Positions 1-36,974 of a stretch of DNA of 37,389 nt are shown one piece after another. Position 1 is the stretch's first letter. Each line of letters begins with the position of its first letter. The position numbers were made by a program, and so were the translations under genes. The notes below the pieces were generated by a model. The model was not told the origin of the DNA and searched no databases. It worked only from the letters and a program-made list of their open reading frames with translations. This DNA is from Hydrurus foetidus. Lineage: Eukaryota. The stretch is from contig UYFQ01000105.1 of the NCBI GenBank assembly GCA_900617105.1, positions 1 to 37,389 of the forward strand, read 5' to 3'.

Positions 1-174
1 TCGGTTCGGATCGAGGACGATCCGAGCCATCCGATTCATGACTTGCCTATCTCTGTGTTTATCTGTAAGCTAACCACATCTCTTTAGCCAATAGCACCAG
101 CACAACAGCTGCCTTCCTCTTGCCCTCGCGCCCCGTCCCATCAGACCCACCGCAGAGCCCATAGTTAGGCCACA
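1..174 (+). repeat. 5' LTR of E1 (partial)
   Basis: Matches 7196-7369 with 2 substitutions (positions 14 and 152); ends ...GGCCACA. Confidence 0.96.
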
Positions 175-723
175 ATACTAGTATTTGGACCAACTTGGTG
201 CTCTTTTTAGAGACCAGTTCCAAAAAGCGTTCCAAAAACATCGCCACGACCCGTAAAACGGCGTGCAAACAAGCTAGTAACTTGGAAACAAGTGAAAACA
301 ACGTCGAAAGACACTACAAAGGCTACGTCTAATCGACAGCCTCTGAAACGCTTTCGTTAAAAAGCTCGAGTCGTCGAGATTTTCGCGACAAAATCGTGAC
401 GGCTTCAAAACTCGAAGCCTAACGAAGCAAGTAGCTCTGAGTCGAGCAAAAGCAAGTCCCATCGTTATAGAAACGAAAGCTGGCCAAAACGCCCGCAGTT
501 TAGCTCCTTGAAAGGTTCAAAACGCCAGGCAACTTTTCGAGCGATTTCCGACGAAATCGCGCGAAAGTAAACCACCAACAGCTCCATCAGTTAAAGGATC
601 CTACGATCCCACGACATCATAGCTGCGGGACCACATCCTCAGCTCCATAGAGCGCCGCGTCCGAGTTCCGTCGCTGTCCAAGACCCCAAGATCAAGACGT
701 TTCCAACTCAAGACAAAAGTCCC

Positions 724-3226
724 ATGACAAGGGCCCAAATAAAGAAGAAAGCGGCTGCTAACGCAGCCGCCTCTGCTTCTTCAGCTCCAAGCGCTTCGCG
801 CAGTGCTCCTCTCACTGAGAAGGAAAGCACAAAGCGGAGCAGGCCCTTGTAAAGCAAAACATCGAGAAATCGATACAGGCTCTGGCCAAAGAAGCAATAC
901 ATGTTTCGGCTACCCCAACTCGTCTTGAGGACGAACAAATTTCTTCCAAAGCGTCATAGCAGCAACAAAAGAAATGCAAGCAGCTCACAAACTAGAGCAA
1001 GCACAAATAGCTGCTGCACAAGCTGCTGCCGACGCTTTAGAACCCTCAAACGACGAGCTCCTCGGGTTGGCACCCGAGGAAGCCGAGGGCGAGACAGACT
1101 CTCCCCTCGATACCCGCGGGTACTTAAAAAGAGGGGGAGAAATCTCGATACTCCCTCCGCGACTGCAACAGATCGGTGCAGAGGACGATCTGTTCGAACC
1201 ATCAGTCGACGCCAAAGTCAAAACAAAAAAGGCATCCGACACCGGCAAGGCCGAGGCCGACGCCGAGTCAGATCCGGAGGCTGACGCCGACGGTGACGAC
1301 AATGCCAACAACAACGACGACGACAAACCCCCCGACGAGTCCGACGACGACAACGACAGTAACGTCGACGACGTTAACGACACGGGAGGCGATGGTGGCA
1401 ACCCCGACAGCTCCTCCGACGAGTCCGACGCAAGTAGTGGCGACGGGGACGACGGAGAGGGTGACGGGGACGACGACGGGACGACAACAGCGACGACGAT
1501 GAGGCGAAAGCTGAAGTCGAAGTCGAAGACGACGAGGAGGTCGAACCCGAAAAGTCTAAGCCCAAGGACAAGAAACCCCTTAAGATAAAACCCCTCGCCA
1601 AGAAAAAGTCCCCAAAGGCGGGTCCCAAACCCGCCCCAAAGGACAAAAAGGTGAAAACCAAAACCGATGCCAAATCCGGTAAAACACACCGCGCGCAAAA
1701 GGCGGAAAACTCGGAAGAGGATTCCCCTCCACAACGCAAAGCGGGTTTGCAAACCTCCATCATCAACATGAAGGAGGCGTACTACCTCACTCGAGAAAAA
1801 CTTCTCGACGACGCTGATAAAGCAGCAAGAGCGTTTACGAACAAGCATACCGCCCCGGTATGTTAACCAGTTGGGAAATGCTAATCGAAATGGATGCCAT
1901 CCAAACGATCCGCGACCAGTTGCTTCGATGCAAAAGCGAGACAGGTTACAACACCAAGACTTGTCTCGCCTGGCCAACGGTCGAAGGCAAAACGTTAACG
2001 TTAAAGAACATTGCAAATGATCTTAAAAAGATCTTTTACAAAAACAAGCGTACGTCTTCCCATTTCGACTTCGAAATGAAGTTGAAAAATTGCAAATTCC
2101 GCATCAGCTGGAAAGATCCTTCTGTTGAAGACAGAGCTCTCTGAGTTCCGTGACATCCTACTCGGATTCTGGACGTCATACGACAATATCGATGCCGACA
2201 TGCAAAATGATATCTGTAAGGCCTTCTACAAGAAGCTGCCAAAGAACAACAAGTTTACAGACAATTTCATGGCAAAGACAAAACGTAAGACGAAAAAGAC
2301 CGGGAAAGATACCATCTTCAAAATGCTCACGCGTCTTGTCGTCATGCTGGGCGAAGCACGCCAGATGATCAAAGACGCGGAGGACATGGGAGGTCTCGAC
2401 TTCGTCTTCGAGTCAAAGCTCACGCCAACCGACCAAGACGACGTTGAGGTCGCACCTCACCGTGACAGCCACTCGGCTAACGCCTACAAGGCAATCCCAA
2501 AACGTCAGGTGGACCCTGAGTCGTCCGGCCTCAGCCGGGCGACCAACTTCTGTCACACCTGTGGCAAAAAGGGACACAACCGTTACGAATGCCAAAACCA
2601 CATGAACCCTCACTGCAACCGTAGCCATCGCACTTGGTCGCAGTCTGAGGAGGCAAAGGACTTCAAACGGATTGGTCACGAATTCTTCGTACCAAATGTG
2701 TACATCAACGGGGAACTTACCCGGGACACCAACAACCCCGGGGCAGCTACCTACGTGTACCATCTGACGATGTTGAGAACGACTTCTCTCCTCCAGGGAG
2801 AGCCCAAGACGACCGTCCGACCAAGAAACAAAAGCTGGCCACCAACAACAACACCAAGTACAACAAGTACAAGAGCAACCAGACTCAACCGGATAGGGAC
2901 AACGATCGTTCTAACACGAACAAGTTGAGCTCCAACTACAAGGGAAAAAGTAAGTCACAACTTGCTAACCCAAGTACGGACATAATCGAGTACGCTCGAG
3001 AATTACCGTCAATGAAACAACTTCTATCAGCTGTATTAACTGAAAACATAGATGATTTCTTACAAGTTCACATATCTCTACCACAGATCCGATCGCCAAT
3101 TTCAAACCAAGTCGCGACCGACCTGACGATCGCAGGGACAACTCGCACCAGGCGGAGAGCAAGGAGGGGGACAGACATAAGTCTTCCTCTTCTTCCTCCT
3201 CCTCCAACCAATACGTGCCAAACTAG
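724..3226 (+). CDS. gag: E1 Gag: acidic/Lys-rich N-terminus, CCHC knuckle CHTCGKKGHNRYEC; predicted spliced form joins 724-2949 to 3087-3226
   Basis: ATG 724. ORF pieces 974-1588, 1651-1866, 1860-2144 and 2125-2928 join via small indels in simple runs and align with E2 Gag. Zinc knuckle at ~2551-2592. Confidence 0.8.
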
Positions 3227-6200
3227 AGGCATGGAAGCCTTGGCCCAAATCGACACTGGATGTCAAGTCGGGGACGTCATCAACGGCAGAGTCCTTCGGG
3301 GCCTCCGTGGCGAAAACCACTTGAGGAATTCCGACTCACCCATGTGGATGTGTAGTGGCTTAAATAATCAATGTGTAGAATCTACAAATGTGCTTGATAT
3401 TGTTGTATCATTTAATAAAGACGATTTAAAACACACTTTTAGTCTTCCTGTCCGAATAGCTCCGGAGTCAAAAGTCGACCTAATCTTAGGATTACAGACT
3501 ATAAAAAATTTAAATTTAGTAAAAATAATACCAGAGTTCTTCCAGAACCTCGATAAAATAACGCCTAGTGCGATACCAGCTTCACCGCTGAAGAAACAAA
3601 GGGTGTCGTTCTCGGCTGAGGACGATGCACAAGTACCACACACGGTACTCATAGACACCGAACTACCCCCCGAGGTAATATCAGCCGAATCAGCGTCAGC
3701 AGACACAATCCAAACGGAAATTCCTTTACCGTTACTAACGGAAAAGGACACTGTCCAAAAGGAAAGTAAAATAGCTGACCCAGGGTCCCCACTACCTCCT
3801 GGCATTTTTGTCATGGAGGGCATAAATCCCTCGACTACAGACTTTCCCCGGCAGGATAACCTGGTAGCTCGAGGTGCTTGTACACACAAGACTTGCAACT
3901 CTTCATGCGGGTGTTCTACAAGCTCAGCGACGGCAGTTGCTCAGCTTGCTTCCGATGAGTCCATACTACGCACCACCAATTTGACAACACTAGTGTTGCC
4001 ACTTCCGCGTCAGAATGGATCTGGTGTAAAAACCAAAAGGCGTAAGAGAGTAGCTACTCTTACACCCTCATCCATAACACCAACCGAAACGCGTGGTATT
4101 GCGGCAGCTCTACTTAGGGAGGAAGACGAAGACCTCCCTGAGGTTCGGTCTTTCCGTGATAAGGAAGGGATCGACTACAAGTCGAAGGATACCTTCGCTC
4201 CTTTTCAAGACAATCCAAACAACGATTCGATGTACTTAATTGATTTAATACATATCGATGGTACACCAACTGAGATTGCCGAAATTAAAGCGATTTGCAT
4301 AAAACACAAATCGCTTTTCAAAAACGAGCTGGGTCCAGAACCCGCTCGAATTCCTCCTTTTGATTTCAAAAAGGTAAACATACCTCAATGGAAACACTTC
4401 CGTAATCGGGGTGCTCCCAGAGTCGCTTCAACGATGCGACAAGAGGAAATCAGGAAACAAATCGTAGCAATGCTCAAAAAGGGAATAATAAAACCATCAG
4501 ATGCCTCATATTACTCCCAAGTAATACTTGCAAATAAACCAGACGGTTCACTCCGATTCTGCATAGATTACAGGAACCTCAATGAGGCAACCGAATCTGC
4601 AAGTTGGCCGATCCCAAATATAAAACAAATGTTATACAGACTTGGCGCGCAACGGCCAAACGTATTCGGCGTAATCGACCTTACGGCCGGATACCACCAA
4701 GCCCCAATAACACTGGCGGCACAAGTATTTACCGCATTTATAACATTTATGGGTATATACCAATTCACACGACTACCATTCGGTCCCAAGATGGCCCCAT
4801 CATACTTTCAACAGATGATGGCGTCAATAGTACTACTTGGCCTTATATACAGCATCTGTGAAGTCTATTTAGACGACATCATCATATATGCTGATGGACA
4901 CATCCAATTCTGTGAACGTTTAGAAACATTGTTTCAACGTCTAGAAGATAAAAACATTTCACTCAAAGCTGCAAAGCTAAGACTTAACGTCAAAGTAGTT
5001 GAATATGTTGGTAGACAAATATCTAAGGAAGGTATATCAATGAGCTCCAAAAAGATAACGGGTGTGACTGACTTTCCGATGCCAAGAAAGACAACTGAAC
5101 TACGTTCGTTCCTCGGTCTCACCAATTACTTTAGGGATCATGTACCAAATCACTCAAATGTGGTAGCACCGCTACACAAAATGATAGATCACGCCGCCAA
5201 AAAGCAAACATTGCTTGTCTGGACAGACGAAGCGGCCGACGCGTTTACGTTAGTCAAAGATCTTATCTCCAAGAGTCCCTTATTATATTTCATCGACGAT
5301 GTAGCACCTATTACCCTCATGACAGATGCGTCTGACTACGGTATAGGTGGTTATTTATATCAAGAAGTCGACGGAGTCAAACAACTCGTCGCTCTCGTAA
5401 GCAAATCTCTTACCAAGACCCAGTTGAAATGGTCCGTAATACAAAAGAGGCTTACGCCCTTTACTTTTGCTGTGACTATCTCGACGCCCTGCTACGAGAT
5501 CGTAAGTTTACTATCCTGACCGATCACAAAAATCTTACTTTCCTGCACAAGGATAAAAATGAGATGGTCGGAAGATGGCGCTGTGCGCTACAGGAATTAG
5601 ATTTTACGATAGGGTATATCCCTGGGAAAAATAATGAAGTCGCTGACGCAATGTCACGCCTATGTAAAACAAGATGCCGAAACACATCATAACAGCAATC
5701 CTTACTTGCAAACCGCTTGCAGCGGAAATATATGCATACTTAATGCGTGTCCACAACTCTACCGTTGGGCACGGAGGATTCAATCGCACTTTGCGAAACC
5801 TAAAAAATAGGGAAAGTATGGGAAGGCATGAGACACGATATAAGAGCATACATTAAACAATGCCCGTGTTGCCAAAAGATGTCTGCTGACAAACAAAAAC
5901 CCGTCACCCATCGTTTCACAACATCAACATATGCACCTATGGAATGCATAAACATAGACTTTATTGGTCCATTCCCGGATAAAGGATACATCCTTGTTAT
6001 GGTAGACACCTTCACAAGGTTTGTCGAACTATCAGCCACAACTGATAATACTGCAAAATCAGCCGTAACAGGCCTAATAGAACACATCGGTCGCTACGGA
6101 GCTCCCAAATTCCTGCGATCCGATAACGGTCCCCATTTCGTAAACAAAATCCTCGAGGAATTTGTAAAAGTTGCCGGTACAACACACAACCTTATTCTAC

Positions 6201-7015
6201 CATACTCTTCGCAAGAAAACTCGATAGTAGAGCGTATGAATAAGGAAATTAACCGACACATCACGGCATTTACATTTGACCGTGCAACTACGGAAAACTA
6301 CCGAGAAATTTTACCATTCGTACAACGAATTATAAATACGACATTCAACGTACGGACACAGTCAACAGCAGCAAAGCTTATATACGGCAATGCTATTGAC
6401 CTTGATGCCAACATCCTTCTCCCTCGAGATGAGATAAACTTAGACATGGCTCATGTCACCCATTCTACTGAGAAAATTATGCAGATGCAAGATGAACTCA
6501 TCAGAATCACTGCTGAACTACTCAAAGAAGCGGACGAGAAACGAAAAGCAGGCGGTTCCACCGACTACACAACGTTCGAAATCGACTCGTTGGTACTGGT
6601 TACCCACCGCACATCAAAACCAACACGCATGCACACTTTATGGAAAGGTCCCATGCAAGTGGTCGCTAACGATCTCGACGAGTATACACTACTCGATCTT
6701 ATTACCAACCGCGAAAAAAGATACCATGTATCAAATATTAAACAATTTGAGTTTGACCCCACAAAGGTCAACCCAACCGATATCGCCCGACGAGATTATC
6801 TCGAGTTCTTTATCGAAGATATCCTAGCAATGGAAGGAAACATCCGAGTCGTGGGAACATTAAAGTTTCACGTCAAGTGGCTAAATTATCCCCACGACAG
6901 AAACACTTGGGAACCGTGGAAAAACATGCGTGACGCTGAAAAAGTCCACGAGTTCTTAATTGCTAAAAACCTAAAACACTTGATTCCAAGTAAATTCGCT
7001 GAAAATTATCGTTAA
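2925..7015 (+). CDS. pol: E1 Pol (protease, RT, RNase H, integrase, chromodomain), in frame with corrected Gag; 3 apparent frameshifts at ~5443, ~5667, ~5803
   Basis: IDTG, RFCIDYRNLN, LPFG, YLDD, TDASDYGIGG, TDHKNL, H..GH...CPCCQ, IDFIGP, SDNG, VERMN, VKWLNY..NTWEP motifs. Confidence 0.95.
2950..3086 (+). other. Predicted 137-nt GT-AG intron at the E1 gag/pol junction
   Basis: A|GTAAGT donor, CTACCACAG|AT acceptor; removal shifts frame into a 46-codon exon ending TAG 3224-3226; same layout in E2. Confidence 0.75.
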
Positions 7016-7152
7016 CCGATATACAGTATGAAACATGAAGGTTTATAAAAAAAAAAAAAAAACTCAATGTTCAACGTGAAATAGTAGTTATATGTTAGTA
7101 TTTAAGCATAGATAAATTGTTCATGAAAAATTTAGTACACCCTTTTTTTTTC

Positions 7153-7164
7153 GAGAGAGGGAGG
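7153..7164 (+). other. Polypurine tract of E1
   Basis: GAGAGAGGGAGG 4 nt upstream of the TG of the 3' LTR. Confidence 0.85.
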
Positions 7165-7168
7165 CCAT

Positions 7169-7369
7169 TGTGACCCGCACCGTACCGGCGTACGTTCGGT
7201 TCGGATCGGGGACGATCCGAGCCATCCGATTCATGACTTGCCTATCTCTGTGTTTATCTGTAAGCTAACCACATCTCTTTAGCCAATAGCACCAGCACAA
7301 CAGCTGCCTTCCTCTTGCCCTCGCGCCCCGTCCCATCAGACCCACCACAGAGCCCATAGTTAGGCCACA
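7169..7369 (+). repeat. 3' LTR of E1 (201 bp)
   Basis: TGTGACC...GGCCACA termini; repeat of 1-174. Confidence 0.96.
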
Positions 7370-7370
7370 G

Positions 7371-9425
7371 CGTACACTCATAAATATGAATGAGGTATTC
7401 ATGCTCAACGCCGAGAAACTCTTGACAGATGGTCCCGCTACCATCCAAGCATTCCACGATCAAGCCAACCTGCCCAATTTCAAAACACATTGGAAGCAGA
7501 TCATTACCGAAAATGCTCTAGTTCCTATTAGGTTCAGACTAAATGGAGTGAAGGAGGTCCTTGGGTACACCCAACCAGAATGTTCCACTTGGCCAGTCAT
7601 TTGCGGTGTCACCCTATCGATCCGACAAATCGCGAAAGACTTGACAGCCTGCTTCTCACAAGCAACAAGGACGTCCGACACGACCTATGATTGCAACGAG
7701 AAGATCAGAGCATACAAGTTTGCGTACGACTTCGCTGATGCATACGTCGAAGAGGCATCGATCACTCGGTTTGAGGAGATCATCAGTCTGTACTACCCAG
7801 ACCGAACCGACCTCACACCTGAGCGCGAGAACGAAATCTGCAAAGCATTTTACAAAAAGCTTCCAGCAGAAAACGCACTCGGGATGAAATTCTTGGAGGC
7901 CACAAAGACGTCCATAAAAAAGACCAAAAGAGACACCATCCAAGACATGTACATGCGACTCAGCGACCACCTCAACATCGCACGTCAATGCGTCAACGAC
8001 GCAGCGGAGCTGGGGAACAGCAGATACCGCTGGACCACTCCAGACAGCCCAACTACCGAGGAAGCAAAAAGACAACGAAGCTCGTTGTCTAATGCATCAT
8101 ACTCCTCCAACCCGCACGCAGTGGGATTCCATCCAGAGGAGGACACACGCGCGCCACCATACAAGGCGATCGCAAAGCGTCAGCCAGAGGTACCACGTTA
8201 CCCCGGCCTTGACCGCAACACCAAGCTGTGCCACACCTGTGGACGCAGCGGACACAACCGTTACAATTGCCGCTTCCACATGAACGAGCATTGCAACAAC
8301 TCGCACAAAATGTGGTCCGAATCCCTCATGGGGATCGAATGGAAACGGCTCGGTCACAAATATTTTGTAATCGATGCACATCATCCATCGGGAGGAGTAT
8401 CTCGTGAGAGAAAACAAATCCACGTCTCGACAAACTTCGAATTCCTCACGGAGGAAGAGGACATTGACATGGGTAACACCCAACAAAAGTCAAACCCTCG
8501 GCAAGGCACCAGTGCACCACCATACAGCAAGGTTAAAAAGCCAGCGTACGACGACAGACGAAGAAGTGAGTTTTCAACACCACCTGTCAGTGTCGTAATT
8601 TTACCGCGTATCGACTTACCTCGAACACGCACCTTACTTTCAGCAATACTTCCTGAAAAAGTAAATGATTACTTACAGGTCAATATTTCTCTCCGACAGA
8701 TCAGTATGGCCCAAGACAAGACGACCGCCCTCGCAAAGACGACCGCGCACAAGCAGACACCGACAACCGCGACCGCGACCGCCAACGCAACGAGCGAGAG
8801 GCCTTCGCGCGCGACAAGGCGAAATACAAGGAAGGATCCGCCAACAGCTCCAACAAGCCCTACTCCTCAAAGTAGAGGCAAGGATGCACTGGCCCAGATC
8901 GATACGGGGTGCGAAGTCGGTGACGTCATTAACCGTAGAGTCCTTGAGGGCCAACGGGGCGAACACCGCTTACGTGACTCCGATTCACCCATGTGGATTT
9001 GTTCTGGTTTAGATAATAAGTGTATTGAATCCAAATCTGTGCTTGATATTGTTGTATCATTTAAGAAAGATTCTTTAAAATACACCTTTTCTCTTCCGGT
9101 CCGCATCGCAGAGGACTCCGAAATAGACTTAATTATAGTTATAAATACCATAAAAAATCTAAATTTAGTTAAAATTATGCCCGAACTTTTCGGTCATAAA
9201 AATCATACTGATCCGTGGACCCGTATAGAAAATTCGATGGTACTAACCACGAATAATCTGCCGGACACAATTCCATCCACCGCGGTCCAAGAATCTCCAG
9301 TCAATAATGACTTGGACGAGGCAAAACCCTCCAACACAGACAACCTGAGGCAAGGTGACATGGTGTCTGGAGGTGCTTGTACACACAAGAATTGCACATC
9401 GCCATATGGGTGTTCGCAGATTTGA
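7371..9425 (+). CDS. gag: E2 Gag-protease in one continuous frame (5'-truncated)
   Basis: 679-aa ORF with CHTCGRSGHNRYNC knuckle and IDTG at 8901; collinear with E1. Confidence 0.9.
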   Translation, partial: RTLINMNEVFMLNAEKLLTDGPATIQAFHDQANLPNFKTHWKQIITENALVPIRFRLNGVKEVLGYTQPECSTWPVICGVTLSIRQIAKDLTACFSQATRTSDTTYDCNEKIRAYKFAYDFADAYVEEASITRFEEIISLYYPDRTDLTPERENEICKAFYKKLPAENALGMKFLEATKTSIKKTKRDTIQDMYMRLSDHLNIARQCVNDAAELGNSRYRWTTPDSPTTEEAKRQRSSLSNASYSSNPHAVGFHPEEDTRAPPYKAIAKRQPEVPRYPGLDRNTKLCHTCGRSGHNRYNCRFHMNEHCNNSHKMWSESLMGIEWKRLGHKYFVIDAHHPSGGVSRERKQIHVSTNFEFLTEEEDIDMGNTQQKSNPRQGTSAPPYSKVKKPAYDDRRRSEFSTPPVSVVILPRIDLPRTRTLLSAILPEKVNDYLQVNISLRQISMAQDKTTALAKTTAHKQTPTTATATANATSERPSRATRRNTRKDPPTAPTSPTPQSRGKDALAQIDTGCEVGDVINRRVLEGQRGEHRLRDSDSPMWICSGLDNKCIESKSVLDIVVSFKKDSLKYTFSLPVRIAEDSEIDLIIVINTIKNLNLVKIMPELFGHKNHTDPWTRIENSMVLTTNNLPDTIPSTAVQESPVNNDLDEAKPSNTDNLRQGDMVSGGACTHKNCTSPYGCSQI
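8566..8699 (+). other. Predicted 134-nt GT-AG intron at the E2 gag/pol junction
   Basis: A|GTGAGT donor, TTTCTCTCCGACAG|AT acceptor; spliced frame runs 58 codons to TAG 8873-8875. Confidence 0.78.
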
Positions 9426-12400
9426 GTAGCGGCCGCTACCGACCCTGTTCAAGACAGGTCCGTCTTGCAAGTATGTGAGAAGTCAACAACCCACTTGACT
9501 TCTCCTCGACAAGATGGTTTAGAGCTCACGCTCGACGGAGAAAAGGAAGTAGCTATCCAAATCTCCCCTTCCATAACTCCACCCCAAACATATGGCTTTG
9601 TCGCGGCTCTACTTAGGGAGAAGGAATATCTCCCTGAGGCTCAACCTTTCGGTCCGGAAGAAATTGACTACAAGTCAAAGGATACATTCGCTCCTTTCAG
9701 GCTTTCCAAGCATACATCCACGGATATCATAGACCTCATTCACATTGAAGGTACTCATGATGAAATCGCACGGATTCGAGCAATATGTGTAAAACACATA
9801 GTCCTGTTCAAAAATGAACTTGGACCAGAACCGGCAAGAATACCACCATTTGATCTTCCCGTAATGGAGAAACAATGGAAGGTGCCCAAAAACAGACATG
9901 CATCACGCATACAGTCTACAAAAAGACAAACGGTTATACGCGAGCTAGTAACAACTATGCTTAAAAGCGGTATAATAGTAAAGTCAAATGCATCGCATTA
10001 TTCTCAAGTAATCCTGGCACCCAAACCGGATGGTACCTTCCGATTTTGCATTGAATACCGTGGACTAAACGAAGCTACGGAATCTGCAAGTTGGCCAATA
10101 CCAAATATAAGACTCATGTTAGGACGTCTAGGGGCGGCAAAAGCAGATACCTTTGGTGTGATTGACCTCACAGCAGGCTACCACCAGGCACCGATCACAA
10201 TGAGCACAAGAATTTATACAGCCTTCATTACACTCATGGGCATATATCACTTCACAAGACTTCCGTTTGGACCTAAACGGGCACCATCATATTTCCAGGA
10301 AATGATGGCGTAAATAGTCCTCATAAGTCTTATTTACTTTATTTGTGAGGTGTACCTTGACGACATCATAGTGTACGCAACAGGACACTTACAATTCTGT
10401 CAACGATTGGAAACAATATTTCAATGTTTAGAAGAGAAAAATATTTCACTCAAAGCAGCTAAGTTAAAACTTGGTATGAAAAAAGTGGAATATGTGGGTA
10501 AAGAAATATCAAAGGAAGGTATAACTATGAGTTCCACAAAGATAAAAGGCGTGACCGACTTTCCGATGCCAAGAAAGACGACAGAACTGAGGTCGTTTCT
10601 CGGACTCACGAATTATTTTAGGGATCATGTACCGAACCACTCAAACGTAGTCGCTCCTTTACAAAAGATGATCCTGCACGCATCCAAAAAGCAAACATTG
10701 CTAATATGGACTGACGAAGCAGCCGATGCATTCTATATGATTAAGCAACGAATTGCAGAGAGTCCCTTGCTATATTTCATACACGATACAGCCCCAATAA
10801 CCTTAATGACTGATGCGTCAGATTACGGTATTGGAGGTTACTTGTATCAGGAAGTCGACGAGAAGAAACAACTCGTCGCTCTCGTAAGTAAGTCTCTTAC
10901 CAAGACACAACTGAAGTGGTCAACAATACAAAAAGAAGCCTTCGCGCTCTATTATTGTTGTACTTACCTCGACGCACTACTACGAGATCGTAAATTTACA
11001 ATTCTCACGGACCATAAAAATCTTACCTTTATTGAAAAAGACAAGAATGAAATGGTTGGCAGATGGCGAGTCGCCCTGCAGGAATTGGATTATACGATAG
11101 GCTACGTACCAGGTAGAGAAAACGACATTGCAGACGCGATGTCACGCCTATGTTTAAACAGAATGGAAAAGAAATCATGTTAAACAATTAACGACAAATG
11201 AGCAATATGAACTCATTGGTAGTTGTCACAACGCAACAGTCGGACATGGTGGTGTACAACGTACGTTACGGAACTTAAAAACAAAGAAGAAAGTGTGGCC
11301 GGGCATGAAAGAAGCAGTAAAACTTTCATCAAAAATTGCCCTTGTTGCCAAAAGATGTCTGCGGTAAAAGTACCAGTCAACTCTTACACTTATACTACTT
11401 CAACATACAAACCAATGGAATGTCTCAACATAGATTTCATTGGACCATTTCCTGATAAAGGATACATTCTAGTCATGATTGACACATTTACACGATTCGT
11501 CGAACTATATGCAACAAAAGATGCTACCGCTAAGGCGGCATGCACAGCATTAGTGGAACACGTCGGTAGATACGGATCTCCAAGATTCCTTAGATCTGAC
11601 AACGGTCCTCACTTTGCCAACCACGTTATTGAAGAATTTACAAAACTCGCAGGCACAGTCCACGAGAAAATTCTCGCCTATTCTTCGGAACACAATTCAA
11701 TTGTGAAAAGAATGAATAAGGAAGTTAATAGGCATATTCGAGCATATACGTATGACAGATCTACCATTGTAACAGAAATCTATCAAGAAATTCTACCATT
11801 TGTTCAACGTATATTAAATACAACAACTAATGATAGAACAAAAATTTCACCGGCACAAATCCTCTATGGAAATGCCATTGATATGGATGAAGGAATTTTA
11901 ATTCCAAGAGGAGAAATTAACCTCATCCCCCAAAATATCACGATTTTATCTACAAATATGATAAAGATCCAAAGTAATCTTATTAGAATTGCAGCAAGAC
12001 TCCTTAAAATATCTGATGACGAACACAATAGAGTGGTGGAGCAACCGGGAATTCCGGTTCCAGGTTTTGAGAATTTCCGGATTATTTTGCATGATCGGAA
12101 CCGTGGTGGAGCACGTGAATTCCGGAATTTCGGATCCATGGAACCCCCAAGAAACCGGTGGGTTCGACTTCTCCCTAGTGCATGTGGGTAGGGAAGTATG
12201 AAATCGACTCAAAATCGACTATCGATGTAATCTTTTCACTAGATTTTAGATAGTTACGAGGTTCATTTAGTTTATCGTAGTAGCCATCATTTTTTCTTTT
12301 TTGCAGTTAAGTAAAAGTTCCTAATGCCGTCATTTTAGGCCTTCATTATTAAGTGATGATTTCTCCTATCAACCCCCAAGTATATCACCTTCTCAGCAGC

Positions 12401-13809
12401 TGAATGGCCCTCGGGCTCTCAAAACATTTTTGCAATCATATGGCATCTTCTTTTGCGTACATTCTTACCGCTGATCTCGAATTCTAAGAAATTTCGACTC
12501 CTGCTGGGAAGGTTTCAGAGACAGCGACCTTTTGGGACAGCTCGGGCAAGGCCTGCCGACAGTGTTCGGCTGCTGCAGCACGGCAGTCGATCTCAAAACT
12601 ACACACCTTTTTAAAATAAGAAAAGCTGTGCTTGAAGATTGTTTTCTTATATCTACAGGTAGACTACAAAAGTGATATCTAACCGTAAAAATGTATAGCA
12701 GGTAATTTGAGCGACCGCGAGAAGATTGGCACGCCGCCAGTCGCCGCAAGGCACACAGTTATCTTTGGTGCTCTTGATGACCTTGTGGGACACGAGCCGG
12801 AGCGATCTGAAGCTTTCGGCTTGGTCTGACGTTCGGGAACGTGGAAGCTTTCACCTGCAGTCCTTTATCAGCGTCCTGAGACTCGTTTGGGATCCAAAAA
12901 GAAGCGCCTAGCGCAATTTCCTGATTTGGTAGAGTCACAGCCGAAGAGCGTTGGCTCGGGAACGTTTGTTCCCACAAAAAGACATCCATTTTGAGGAGTG
13001 CGATGAAAATCACAGAGAAATCGGTGCTCAAGGCACTGTTGGATAAATTTCAAATGGCATGCATTGCCTGCGTCCGATGTTGTTGACTCCCGCAAAAAAT
13101 TCTGAGCGTGATGACCATTTTTGTGGTCCTTTGAGTGTGTATTCCTACTGTTATGAGAGCGGTACTGTAAGTTTAAACAGCAGCAGCTTCATTTTAGGGG
13201 GCGAATTGATCCGGAAGTTTGACTTCTGGATTGGAGTATTTTTGAGTGGGACATCCGGATCAATCCAGAAGTCAACTTCCGGATCAATCCGGATTTACCC
13301 CAAAAAAAGCGGGACTTCAGGATTGCTCCACCACTCTGATGAAAAACAAAACCCGGATATAATACATTTCGAGGTAGGCTCATATGTACTCGTTACTCAA
13401 CGCACACAGCCAGAGACACGCATGCACACATTGTGGCGCGGTCCTCTTCGAGTTCTAAGCAATAAGAAAGGAGAATATACGCTACTCAATCTTATTACTC
13501 TTAAAAATGTTAAATACCACATGTCACAATTAAAAACTTTCTTATTTAATCCACTGCACACTGATCCAACAGATGTAGCACGTCGAGATTATTTAGGACT
13601 CTTCATCGGAGAAATCATAGATATGAGGGGAAATATTTCATCTTATGGAGCATTAGAATTTGAGGTCAAATGGCTCAATTATCCCTCAGAGAGTAATACC
13701 TGGGAACCGTGGTGAAGTCTAAGAAAAACAGACAAACTACACAATTTTCTTATTAAGTAAGAATTTACGTCACCTAATTCCAAGAGAATTCAGGTTAGAC
13801 TATGTCTAA
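9426..13809 (+). pseudogene. pol: E2 pol (RT, RNase H, integrase, chromodomain) with in-frame stops, frameshifts and a TE insertion
   Basis: Stops at 9423, 10311 and 13713; YLDD 10353; integrase split by 12029-13338; chromodomain EVKWLNYPSESNTWEPW at ~13660-13712. Confidence 0.92.
12029..13338. mobile_element. Non-autonomous TIR DNA transposon (~1.31 kb) inserted in the E2 integrase
   Basis: Perfect 15-bp inverted termini AGAGTGGTGGAGCAA (12030-12044) / TTGCTCCACCACTCT (13323-13337). Subterminal TCCGGA-type repeats at both ends. Removal restores integrase ...DDEHN|EKQNPD... collinear with E1. Confidence 0.88.
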
Positions 13810-16110: not shown

Positions 16111-16182
16111 TGCTCCCAGAGGGATTCGAACCCACGACACCAGATTCAAAGTCTGGGGTGCTAACCACTACACTATGGGAGC
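16111..16182 (-). tRNA. tRNA-Gln(TTG)
   Basis: 72 nt: acceptor GCTCCCA/TGGGAGC, anticodon arm CCAGA-CTTTGAA-TCTGG, GGTTCGAATCC T arm, downstream T6 Pol III terminator. Confidence 0.96.
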
Positions 16183-26397: not shown

Positions 26398-27254
26398 TTA
26401 CTTTTCTGCACTTGCTTTACCCATGTATTTGCAATCAGCAGTTGACACAATGATCATCTGACCGTTTTCAATGAACATGGGGACGTTAACAGTTGCACCT
26501 CCCTCTACGACAGCGGGTTTCGTTCCGCCTGCGGCACTGTTGCCTTTGAAATTTGGAGGTGTGTCTATGACTTGGTACTCCACTGAAATAGGCAGCTGAA
26601 CATCAATGACCTGCTCGTTCCAGATGCTCACTTGGCAACTTAGTCCAGGCTTAAGCAGCATAACATTGTCGACTTTCTTCATAGGAATTCTCTGTTCCTC
26701 GAATGTTTCCATGTCCATGAAGCAGAGGTTGTCGCCCTCTGTGAATGTGTACTGCATTTCGCCTTTTGTGACCTGAACGACCATTTCATTAAATCGTAAT
26801 TTCGTTAAATTTCGTTTTTTATCATGCTTGAGGGCAATCTCGTTACATAGCAGTTACCTCAGCTGACGAGACGTTTTCTCCGGCGCGGAAAGTGCGCTCT
26901 TGTACGCTGCCGTTGACTAGATTCTTAATCTTTGTTCGTACAAATGCTGACCCTTTGCCGGGCTTCACGTGCAAGAACTCGAGCATTCTAACGGGAACAC
27001 CATCTGTAGCCAATATGGTCGAACCATTAAATCTATCAAGAGCCTTAAATGGCATTTAGTTGAGGATAGTTGTGCTAACCTATTTCTAATGTCATTCCAT
27101 TCTTGAAGTCGGCAGTATTCAGGAACCTACGGGTTAATGAGTTCTGGGTTGTTCTCGACTGGGAAATAGCCGAGAAGGGTTTCGATAGAAGGAATGATTG
27201 GACAAATATTGTCGGTAAGGTCAGCAGGCAAACGGCAAGGATTCTCGACATCAT
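26398..27254 (-). CDS. efp: Plastid-targeted elongation factor P (exons 27254-27080, 27003-26858, 26772-26398)
   Basis: [27 protein letters not shown] and VPMFI motifs; signal peptide plus transit-like leader (VQS-FLL); GT-AG introns in phase. Confidence 0.95.
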
Positions 27255-34600: not shown

Positions 34601-35400
34601 TACGATACCACTAGGTGTTTCCACTCTAGCGTCTGTTTTGGCACTGTCTACCATTTCACATAAATGTGCTAGGGTGTACGTTCGCAGACGTAGATCACCA
34701 CCATGAGTCGATACATGGCCACAACTGTCACACATAGTTTCAGCCCCAGAGGTGCTTGGTTGACTAGAGCATCCGACATCAAAACAGCGAGCTACTCTGT
34801 TAAAGTCTGTTTTGTGGAGTGGCATGGTACTATGACCAGAATAAGGACGTGCCAATTCACCCTTCTTGCCCTCACGTATGGACGGAATGCCCTCCGCAGC
34901 TAATAAAACTTCCATTCTTTTGAATGAGTTTATCACATTAGGCATCCCGATTTCAAAGGGGGTCAAAGTGAAGAAATCATAACTCCCAAAACTCAAAGTG
35001 AAGAAGAGTTGGTCGACCCAAAATTAAATCGATGGTGTTAGGAATAATCCTCACTGTTAAAAATATCGTTTTAATTAACAGGGTGTTCGTGACAAAAATC
35101 ATGCCTATATCGATTACTTAGTCTCTAAACATATAGTGAGTGGTTTATAAGACGTGTAAAGAAACTCATCTCCGTGACTGTTATGTACAAAAGTTTGACT
35201 AATAAAGTCGCCGGGGAGGCTCCCGGTATCCAGGAGAGTCTTCGCCAGAACCCTTTGGGGCCTATGGCTTTGGGGGTAGTTGGTGGGGTACGTATGGGTT
35301 GTGACCCTGACCCCATTCCTGACTCTGCTTAGCTGATTTACAAAAATCCAAGCAGACAAAAAATTAGAATCCATGTCTATTTTAGTCAGGGATACTGCTA
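31699..35400 (-). pseudogene. pol: E3 pol (PR, RT, RNase H, integrase, chromodomain), frameshifted
   Basis: ORF pieces 35114-35374, 33884-34324, 33640-33930, 32881-33633 and 31699-32874 carry the canonical motifs. Confidence 0.92.
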
Positions 35401-36974
35401 GGATAGCAGATTGGTGCAGAGGATGACCTTGTTTTTTGTTTCTGCGGTTCTCTGCGTGTTGGGCATTTGTAGCGGGGTCGTTCGCTTGAACTGATTCTTG
35501 GGTGGGTATAGCATACCCACTCTGAATTCAGACTGAGGTCTGTTCAGGTGTTGGGTCTCGTACCCTGGAAGTTTGACTCCCGCATCATAGGCTTGGAACC
35601 CATGGTGAGGCCACAGGTGACCCATCGTGGAGTCCTTCCATCGCAGATGGAGTTCATTGTTGGCGTCTGCAAAGAACAGAGCCGGACAGTCTCGGATCTC
35701 ATGTCCGGGATGTCCACACGAGCGACATGGTGGAGGTGGCGGTTGGGGCCGCATCTGGACCAGAGGGTCATTTGATGTTCTCCTTGCCAAGGGAGCGGTA
35801 GCTTGCATCGTTTGCATAGGTTGAGCAGGGGGAGGGAGAGGCAGTGCTGCTAGTACTGATTTAGCATAGACAGCAGCAGAGAATGATCTCTGTTCAGGTA
35901 TGATCATCTGTTGTGCTTTTGGTACCTGGGTTACTCGCTCATCATAGCGGCTCTCTCTCGAAGAGTAAGAGTGTCTCCCAACGGGGTCACCGCAGTTAGC
36001 GACTTCTTTGAGAAGCTTACGTACGTGTCCGATGCACGTTCCAAAACGGATGAATGCAGACTCCTAGGTCTCATTCGCAATGGGTTTACCATTGTTACCC
36101 TTCGCCCTGAAATAATCATTTTTTAGTTGACTATCAGGTTTGAGTTTTTTCTCAATCGTTACTATCAGTGCAGCATGCTGCTCCGGAGTGATTGGTTGGG
36201 TGTTCTCGTAGGTCTCATTCGTGAAAGAAAAATTAATTTCAATTGACGCGAAGTTCTCTACGAGGGTCCGACCCACATCATTTTTGTCGCCAAAATATTT
36301 GGATATGATGGTCGCAGCCTTTTTGACTGTAACATGGTTATACCATGTGTAGTAAACTCTGGGTCGCTTGCAAAAGCGTATTGTATGACATAGGTCGTGG
36401 GGTCGACGACGACCTGGTGAGTAAAAAAGTTGTCATGCCATTGATTGGCTTGATTTTGAAACTTCGCAGCTTGTTCTCCCGTAATGTTCGGGGTTTCAAT
36501 GATAAACGGCGGTTCTGGTAAAATGCTCTGTTTAACGGTTCTGATAACGGTAATGCTCTGTTTAAAAGCACTTGCAACGTGCTCCATATTGCACTGAGGA
36601 GTACGGAGTGGAACATCGACTACGATGGGAACGAGGGGTGACTACCGCACAGTCACCACACACGGTGACTGTACTTTCGCCAGCTTCGCCACGCATCGAT
36701 GCCTGTTGACACAATTCAGGTAAGGTCAAGGGCCTATCGGAGTTACTAGTGCTACTAGAGCTACTAGACGAGTTACTCGGGCTCGATTTACTCGGAGAGT
36801 TCTCGATATCACTCTCTTCAGAGTAATCGTAATTGTCTCGTGGTATTTCTCCACCATCTTCCAAGTCAAGTAGCTCATGACGGTGTGAGTTGGAAGGAAC
36901 GGCGTCAATTGACATCCGGTCTCATACGGAGTCTCTGCTAAATAATCAGCAGGTAAATTTGACATCATCTCCAA
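35398..36974 (-). pseudogene. gag: E3 gag, fragmented
   Basis: CCHC knuckle in 35398-35907; upstream pieces resemble E1/E2 Gag (F..QAN, KKL...L). Confidence 0.75.

Follow-up and report, generated by a model that had tools for sequence, protein, structure and literature searches.

Comparison of related elements makes it very probable that a clade of Ty3/Gypsy retrotransposons carries, at the end of gag, a short intron that is optionally spliced, with the spliced RNA encoding Gag plus a second-frame tail and the intron-retaining RNA providing both Gag-Pol and the genome. The initial annotation had proposed this reading for a single element, and the sequence comparison supports it. How single-ORF Ty3/Gypsy elements produce more Gag than Pol is largely an open question; the strategies described in the available portions of the sources are frameshifting, readthrough and Pol degradation, and spliced Gag is described there for Copia only (PMC7730604, PMC7765848, PMC7197481), the one Gypsy Gag RNA in PMC7765848 being without an intron.

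The window (the whole stretch of DNA analysed, 37,389 nt) contains three Ty3/Gypsy elements, E1, E2 and E3, lying between host genes, and each is a broken copy. One host gene is closest, among named matches, to Ochromonas danica, Ectocarpus and Nannochloropsis, from which the host would be an ochrophyte, likely a chrysophyte. E1 spans 1-7369 and has nearly identical LTRs: the 5' LTR (1-174, plus strand) is cut by the window edge and shares 99% identity with 7196-7369, whilst the 3' LTR (7169-7369, plus strand) is bounded by TG...CA and stands just after a purine tract (7153-7164). Pfam matches to reverse transcriptase (RT; 4533-5018; RVT_1, 7.9e-19), RNase H, integrase and a chromodomain at the integrase end (6815-6955; Chromo, 1.2e-9) follow in Gypsy order, all on the plus strand, and the succession of protease, RT, RNase H and integrase between LTRs, together with the purine tract, identifies a Ty3/Gypsy LTR retrotransposon. 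A chromodomain at the integrase C-terminus was detected by Pfam in E1, E2 and E3; the chromovirus assignment rests on this domain, the RT tree having held no named chromovirus reference elements. E1 derives from a single-ORF Ty3/Gypsy element with a chromodomain, of which it is a broken copy, and it is inserted in the gag of E2, the sequence of which resumes at 7370 (junction 7369/7370), the 5' part of E2 falling outside the window. E3 lies on the minus strand.

Several further features of these elements were recorded. A standard tRNA-Met primer site was absent directly 3' of the E1 5' LTR (175-215). The spacer between protease and RT (3560-4150) is long and variable, and holds a conserved Cys-rich word (C-x4-C-x3-CGC-like) common to E1, E2, P0002-P0004, P0007 and P0008. 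A 1.3-kb insertion at 12030-13337, which ends in 26-nt terminal inverted repeats and is probably a non-autonomous DNA transposon, interrupts the E2 integrase, and a tRNA-Gln(TTG) gene occupies 16111-16182 on the minus strand. In run X1, two contigs return to an earlier position of the element, from 2649 to about 1954 (depth 526) and from about 5490 to 3944 (depth 60); these back-jumps, which touch 1954-2649 and 3944-5490, the first at a joint without GT/AG, suggest circular or tandem sub-element units.

The part of E1 gag that could be aligned by tblastn to intact relatives (P0001, P0002 and P0007) covers 1705-2949 (plus strand), where the predicted first exon ends. The frame changes several times along these alignments, so that gag is broken in E1. 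The change at 2759 is specific to this copy, as 13 family-copy contigs from run X5 have one extra base there. A putative Gag zinc knuckle (2551-2592, plus strand) was recognized from a CCHC-type pattern in the translation and a weak, sub-cut-off Pfam zf-CCHC_3 match; a knuckle-like pattern lies within the same ORF in 40 of 51 elements, and atlas look-alikes carrying zf-CCHC and Retrotrans_gag, at 0.89-0.91, are leads only.

At the end of E1 gag, the observation on which the proposal was founded proved exact at every coordinate and lies far beyond chance. A GTAAGT donor begins at 2950 and opens a predicted retained intron of 137 nt, or 3n+2 (2950-3086, plus strand), which ends in ACCACAG and is AT-rich (A+T 62%, versus 50% before and 45% after); relative to the gag-pol frame, its donor is in phase 1 and its acceptor in phase 0. 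In the dual-coding exon that follows (3087-3226, plus strand), the second (+2) frame stays open for 45 codons after the junction codon, up to a TAG at 3224-3226 that lies 25 nt upstream of the protease Asp codon (3252). Third codon positions of this frame (A13 C44 G24 T18%, 45 codons) resemble those of E1 gag (A17 C43 G25 T16%, 206 codons), as had been claimed, whereas these bases read in the pol frame are unlike gag (A/C/G/T 27/24/24/24). The catalytic DTG of the protease occupies 3252-3260 (plus strand), with its Asp and Gly invariant in 46 aligned sequences. The claim that no slippery site exists at the junction did not hold for E1 alone, since a canonical X XXY YYZ heptamer, GGGAAAA, lies in the gag frame at 2942-2948 (plus strand) just before the donor.

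The same layout was found in E2, in different letters: a single ORF runs from gag through protease (7290-9425), placing gag and pol in one frame as initially stated, with a 134-nt predicted intron (8566-8699, GTGAGT...CAG), a dual-coding tail exon (8700-8875) ending in TAG at 8873-8875, both on the plus strand, and an identical distance from TAG to Asp. E3 and its intact relative, L089, also share it. On the minus strand of the window, E3 has a 95-nt predicted intron (35333-35427) and a tail exon (35262-35332) that ends in TAG, and its donor reads GTCATC in the broken copy versus GTAATC in L089.

Scans of metagenomes with RT patterns gave 114 loci, of which 78 had enough upstream DNA and were examined; a protease-pattern scan of the metagenomes gave no matches. 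A recognisable protease motif was present in 58 loci, which with E1-E3 made 61 elements, and in 51 of these an unbroken ORF covers RT, the protease and at least 360 nt upstream of the protease. In a FastTree RT tree, E1, E2 and 36 loci formed a core clade (support 1.0), to which E3 was joined through L089. One short locus without an anchor (L025) was dropped, and the other 38 all gave an acceptor call. Statistics were calculated on 19 representatives, one per 85% RT-identity cluster, with E2 kept despite a later stop; the 34 intact members show the same picture. Pfam detected a chromodomain at 17 of 19 tested ORF ends, including all ten from the core clade. The contigs of L081-L114, many of them with a GFS label, come from bacterial genome bins, and the presence of these eukaryotic retrotransposons makes bin contamination likely. 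The contig of L020 holds a second, partly deleted relative (6324-8115) in which the donor-to-protease region is kept.

Across families, splice signals recur at fixed places. Within eight codons after the predicted first protease strand, a CAG or AAG acceptor is found in all 19 representatives, compared with 27% of 2303 pol windows, and it always falls 6-13 codons after the start of that strand. CAG alone accounts for 17 of the 19 (11% in pol windows), and the first Gln at the acceptor site is written CAG in 16 cases and CAA in 2, versus 277:489 in pol (p=7e-6), and as the two codons are synonymous, selection on the protein cannot account for this preference. Donors were sought 60-160 nt upstream of the acceptor. 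A phase-1 donor with a U1 consensus score of at least 7 of 9 was present in 15 of 19 representatives, against 6.4% of 545 pol windows, whilst none reached this score in phase 0 or phase 2 (0/19 each); four donors score below 7, and in L039 the best donor in the search span scores 4, with a stronger one 161 nt upstream. Given a donor in phase 1 and an acceptor in phase 0, every predicted intron is 3n+2 in length (77-137 nt across representatives), and the introns are T-rich (35% T, versus 18% and 11% in the flanks). As a host intron reference we took the EF-P gene of the window (26398-27100, minus strand), whose GT-AG introns (27079-27004 and 26857-26773) measure 76 and 85 nt, a size like that of the predicted introns. 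Because the search windows were set after the sequences had been viewed and the families share ancestry, these counts are strong but not independent.

Beyond the core clade, a phase-1 donor scoring at least 7 occurs in 12 of 14 outer representatives and in the other phases in 1 of 14 each (background 8.4% of 297), and the outer acceptors are less clear, some representatives having a phase-0 CAG upstream of the Asp and others none that is evident; as evidence that the splice design extends beyond the core clade, this is suggestive only. In L038, L044, L046, L064, L065 and L069 a candidate acceptor lies just after DTG and is followed by an immediate stop, possibly a second layout without a tail. 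Concealment of the donor in a hairpin was rejected as a general retention mechanism, with a z of 2.75 in E1 and a family mean of 0.03 (above 1 in five of 19 families, below -1 in three). Of the sequencing runs found to contain the element, none is listed as RNA. The joint 2949^3087 was absent from contigs of three 'RNA?' and four probable DNA runs, and one X3 contig covers 2802-3177 unspliced, neither of which says anything on expression. No spliced Gag protein was found among six protein matches.

Evidence that the second frame is itself coding comes from its stops and its substitutions. Read on from the acceptor, the +2 frame meets a stop ahead of the catalytic Asp in all 19 representatives (TAA 12, TAG 6, TGA 1), with the caveat that protease codons by themselves can create a stop beside the V-x-A motif of the protease. 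Inside the 14 of 19 loops long enough to be counted, it contains one stop in 290 codons, versus 9.1% in pol; codon shuffles predicted 12.9, and none of 5000 was as low as 1. The +1 control frame had 8 stops, versus 11.0 in shuffles (P=0.12). In ten disjoint pairs, loop substitutions were distributed over the three pol codon positions as 24/43/28, versus 90/50/157 in the protease (p=7e-8), a signal that comes mainly from four pairs, three of the ten being without tail change and E1/E2 aligning poorly. The loop peak at pol position 2 corresponds to tail position 3. Loop substitutions silent only in the tail numbered 33 and those silent only in pol 22, the latter indicating that pol-frame coding in the loop keeps some constraint. 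Among copies of E1's high-copy family, four of five variants in the tail leave its amino acids unchanged while altering those of the pol frame, none of the 10 listed variants (covering 2915-3177) falls on donor or acceptor, and downstream 11 of 23 variants are silent in pol and 3 of 23 in +2. Together, these patterns indicate that the +2 frame in the protease loop is open and under selection. The check that the initial annotation had named, conservation of donor, acceptor, 3n+2 length and stop with selection in both frames, thus came out in favour of its proposal both in the 19 family representatives and among copies of E1's family.

Not foreseen in the initial annotation was the character of the predicted tails, which are basic and often RGG-rich. 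They range from 4 to 57 aa, carry a net positive charge in 19 of 19 representatives and are rich in Gly, Arg and Lys, with RGG boxes in L007, L012, L014-L016, L018 and L027; the E1 tail is weakly basic (+1). Equally new is the placement of intron and tail exon in the protease fold. An AlphaFold2 model of E1 3039-3551, built with a 46-sequence alignment (pLDDT 83.6), places a strand at residues 7-13 and the DTG strand at 64-71, with low confidence for the stretch between them (about 14-63). Residues 1-171 of the model align with RSV protease 6-124 (Z 11.6, rmsd 3.3, 115 aligned), and the best structural matches, the RSV, EIAV and Ddi1 proteases (Z 11.5-11.6), point to a retropepsin-type enzyme; a PDB sequence search with A1 gave 0 matches. 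From the alignment of the model to these proteases, the 3' end of the intron is predicted to encode the first protease strand (3057-3077, plus strand, overlapping the pyrimidine-rich stretch before the acceptor) and the tail exon to occupy the disordered, variable loop after it, which measures 12-67 aa across families. The spliced RNA would consequently lack the code for one protease strand and be read out of the protease frame.

We propose that one transcript is made from the single gag-pol ORF. Where the intron is retained, Gag-Pol would be translated and the same unspliced RNA would serve as genome; where it is removed, whole Gag would be followed by a basic tail in the second frame and then a stop. 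Spliced RNA would be the main Gag source and probably account for the Gag excess, the splice ratio setting Gag:Pol, and the basic or RGG tail may help Gag to bind RNA. The spliced RNA would be kept out of replication, for which the absence of intron-less DNA copies among the 114 loci and the window, searched with 38 junction probes (the single match, in L030, being an indexing artefact), is weak evidence.

Other explanations of the junction were weighed against optional splicing. A -1 ribosomal frameshift could enter the tail frame (+2 being equal to -1) or end Gag, the GTRAG word then being kept for its -1 stop, and -1 frameshifting is used by most non-fission-yeast Tf1/sushi chromoviruses, according to the available text of PMC10085805. 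E1 does have its heptamer in phase directly before the donor, but such a heptamer occurs near the donor in only one of 19 families (background 4% of 1196 windows); five of 19 have one between donor and Asp, at positions that do not agree, and donors without a stop exist (GTAC in L036, GTCAGT in L095). Frameshifting would also leave unexplained the use of CAG over CAA, the acceptor position and the host-like intron size, and a Gag excess would presumably need most ribosomes to slip; we consider it highly improbable. Less probable still is that no splicing takes place, and that its composition keeps a low-complexity insertion in the protease loop free of +2 stops, the signals being by-products of protein motifs. 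The +1 frame is likewise mildly stop-poor in the loop (8/290 versus 6.6%), and Gag ends often carry basic K-G-K/E words (25 of 54 family-like proteins), but a test on these words did not discriminate, as 9 of 24 other proteins also have them. Against composition and protein motifs stand the shuffles, which keep composition and yet give 12.9 stops for the one observed, the synonymous CAG/CAA choice and the substitutions that follow the +2 frame.

Splicing might instead be real with a main role other than bulk Gag, yielding an RNA-binding Gag isoform or a Pol-limiting decay substrate, with Gag excess arising from Pol degradation as in Tf1. The tails do differ greatly (4-57 aa), the stop in spliced RNA would leave a long 3' UTR behind it, poly(A) hexamers after the stop share no position (six of 10 checked have one, at differing places), and, in the text available, the Gypsy element Cer1 splices to make the regulator CERV (PMC10309623). 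This account appears unlikely to us, however, given that the spliced product would keep the whole of Gag (379-641 aa, versus 1730-2010 aa for Gag-Pol, at eight loci) and that a tail frame under selection points to its stable translation.

Returning to optional splicing as the source of Gag, we see a somewhat better than even chance that a widespread protist chromovirus lineage evolved Gag-by-splicing independently of Copia, and that a surface loop of its protease became an expandable dual-coding exon. The intron 3' end would then double as a protease strand, and the loop, growing from 12 to 67 aa, would carry an RGG or basic RNA-binding tail found on spliced Gag only, so that Gag and Gag-Pol would differ in their RNA-binding end. 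Given the donors in 12 of 14 outer families, splicing may be a common, overlooked route to Gag excess in single-ORF Gypsy elements. The clade offers dozens of intact elements whose junctions are exactly placed and open to testing, together with what would be a clear natural example of an enzyme loop that has made room for a dual-coding exon, and it would mean that Gag and protease boundaries are mis-annotated in such elements.

Known systems, each taken from the available portions of its sources, were compared with the E1 clade. Tf1/sushi and plant chromoviruses share its domain order and chromodomain and are in some cases single-ORF; the strategies given for them are -1 frameshifting, an in-frame stop or a single ORF, with splicing not among them (PMC10085805). 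Optional splicing is known in Ty3/Gypsy from CRR, a rice centromeric chromovirus in which rt is removed, and from Ogre, in which splicing joins gag-pro to rt-rh-int, a logic opposite to that of the E1 clade; neither is described there as having a small gag/protease intron that gives Gag with a second-frame tail (via PMC3735527, PMC6317226). The initial annotation, which knew of no report of the dual-coding design in chromoviruses, needs the adjustment that splicing as such is already reported for one of them, CRR. In the literature searched, which covered few subscription papers, we found no small gag/protease intron in a Gypsy element or chromovirus, PMC2911113 and PMC9940879 contributing nothing on the point, and a prior report may exist. 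Cer1 of C. elegans, also Ty3/Gypsy and single-ORF, likewise uses an other-frame exon in its spliced RNA, but there splicing yields the export factor CERV, while Gag comes from unspliced RNA (PMC10309623, PMC3315495).

The Copia elements BARE1 and EVD provide the mechanistic parallel. BARE1 of barley has a single gag-pol ORF and a 104-nt U-rich optional intron at the gag end, the splicing of which shifts the frame to a stop and gives Gag only, with proof at the RNA level (PMC3735527). The E1 clade is like it in its single ORF, short optional gag-end intron and frame shift followed by a stop; BARE1 differs in belonging to Copia, in stopping three residues after Gag and in being RNA-proven where the E1 clade is known from sequence alone, and no selected tail or exon inside the protease fold is described in the accessible part of that paper. 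In EVD and other Arabidopsis Ty1/Copia elements, a splice-coupled frameshift produces Gag-only shGAG RNAs (PMC5580714, PMC12786077); retention gives Gag-Pol and the genome, as in the model for the E1 clade, whereas the EVD intron takes with it the entire protease domain and is linked to early termination. Like these elements, the E1 clade has a single gag-pol ORF without a recoding signal and, judged by its sequence, a gag-end intron whose removal shifts the frame to a stop, but its Gypsy domain order and chromodomain set it apart from Ty1/Copia, so that it would work like BARE1 and EVD without being a member of their group. It is likely that a mechanism known from Copia operates in this Gypsy clade.
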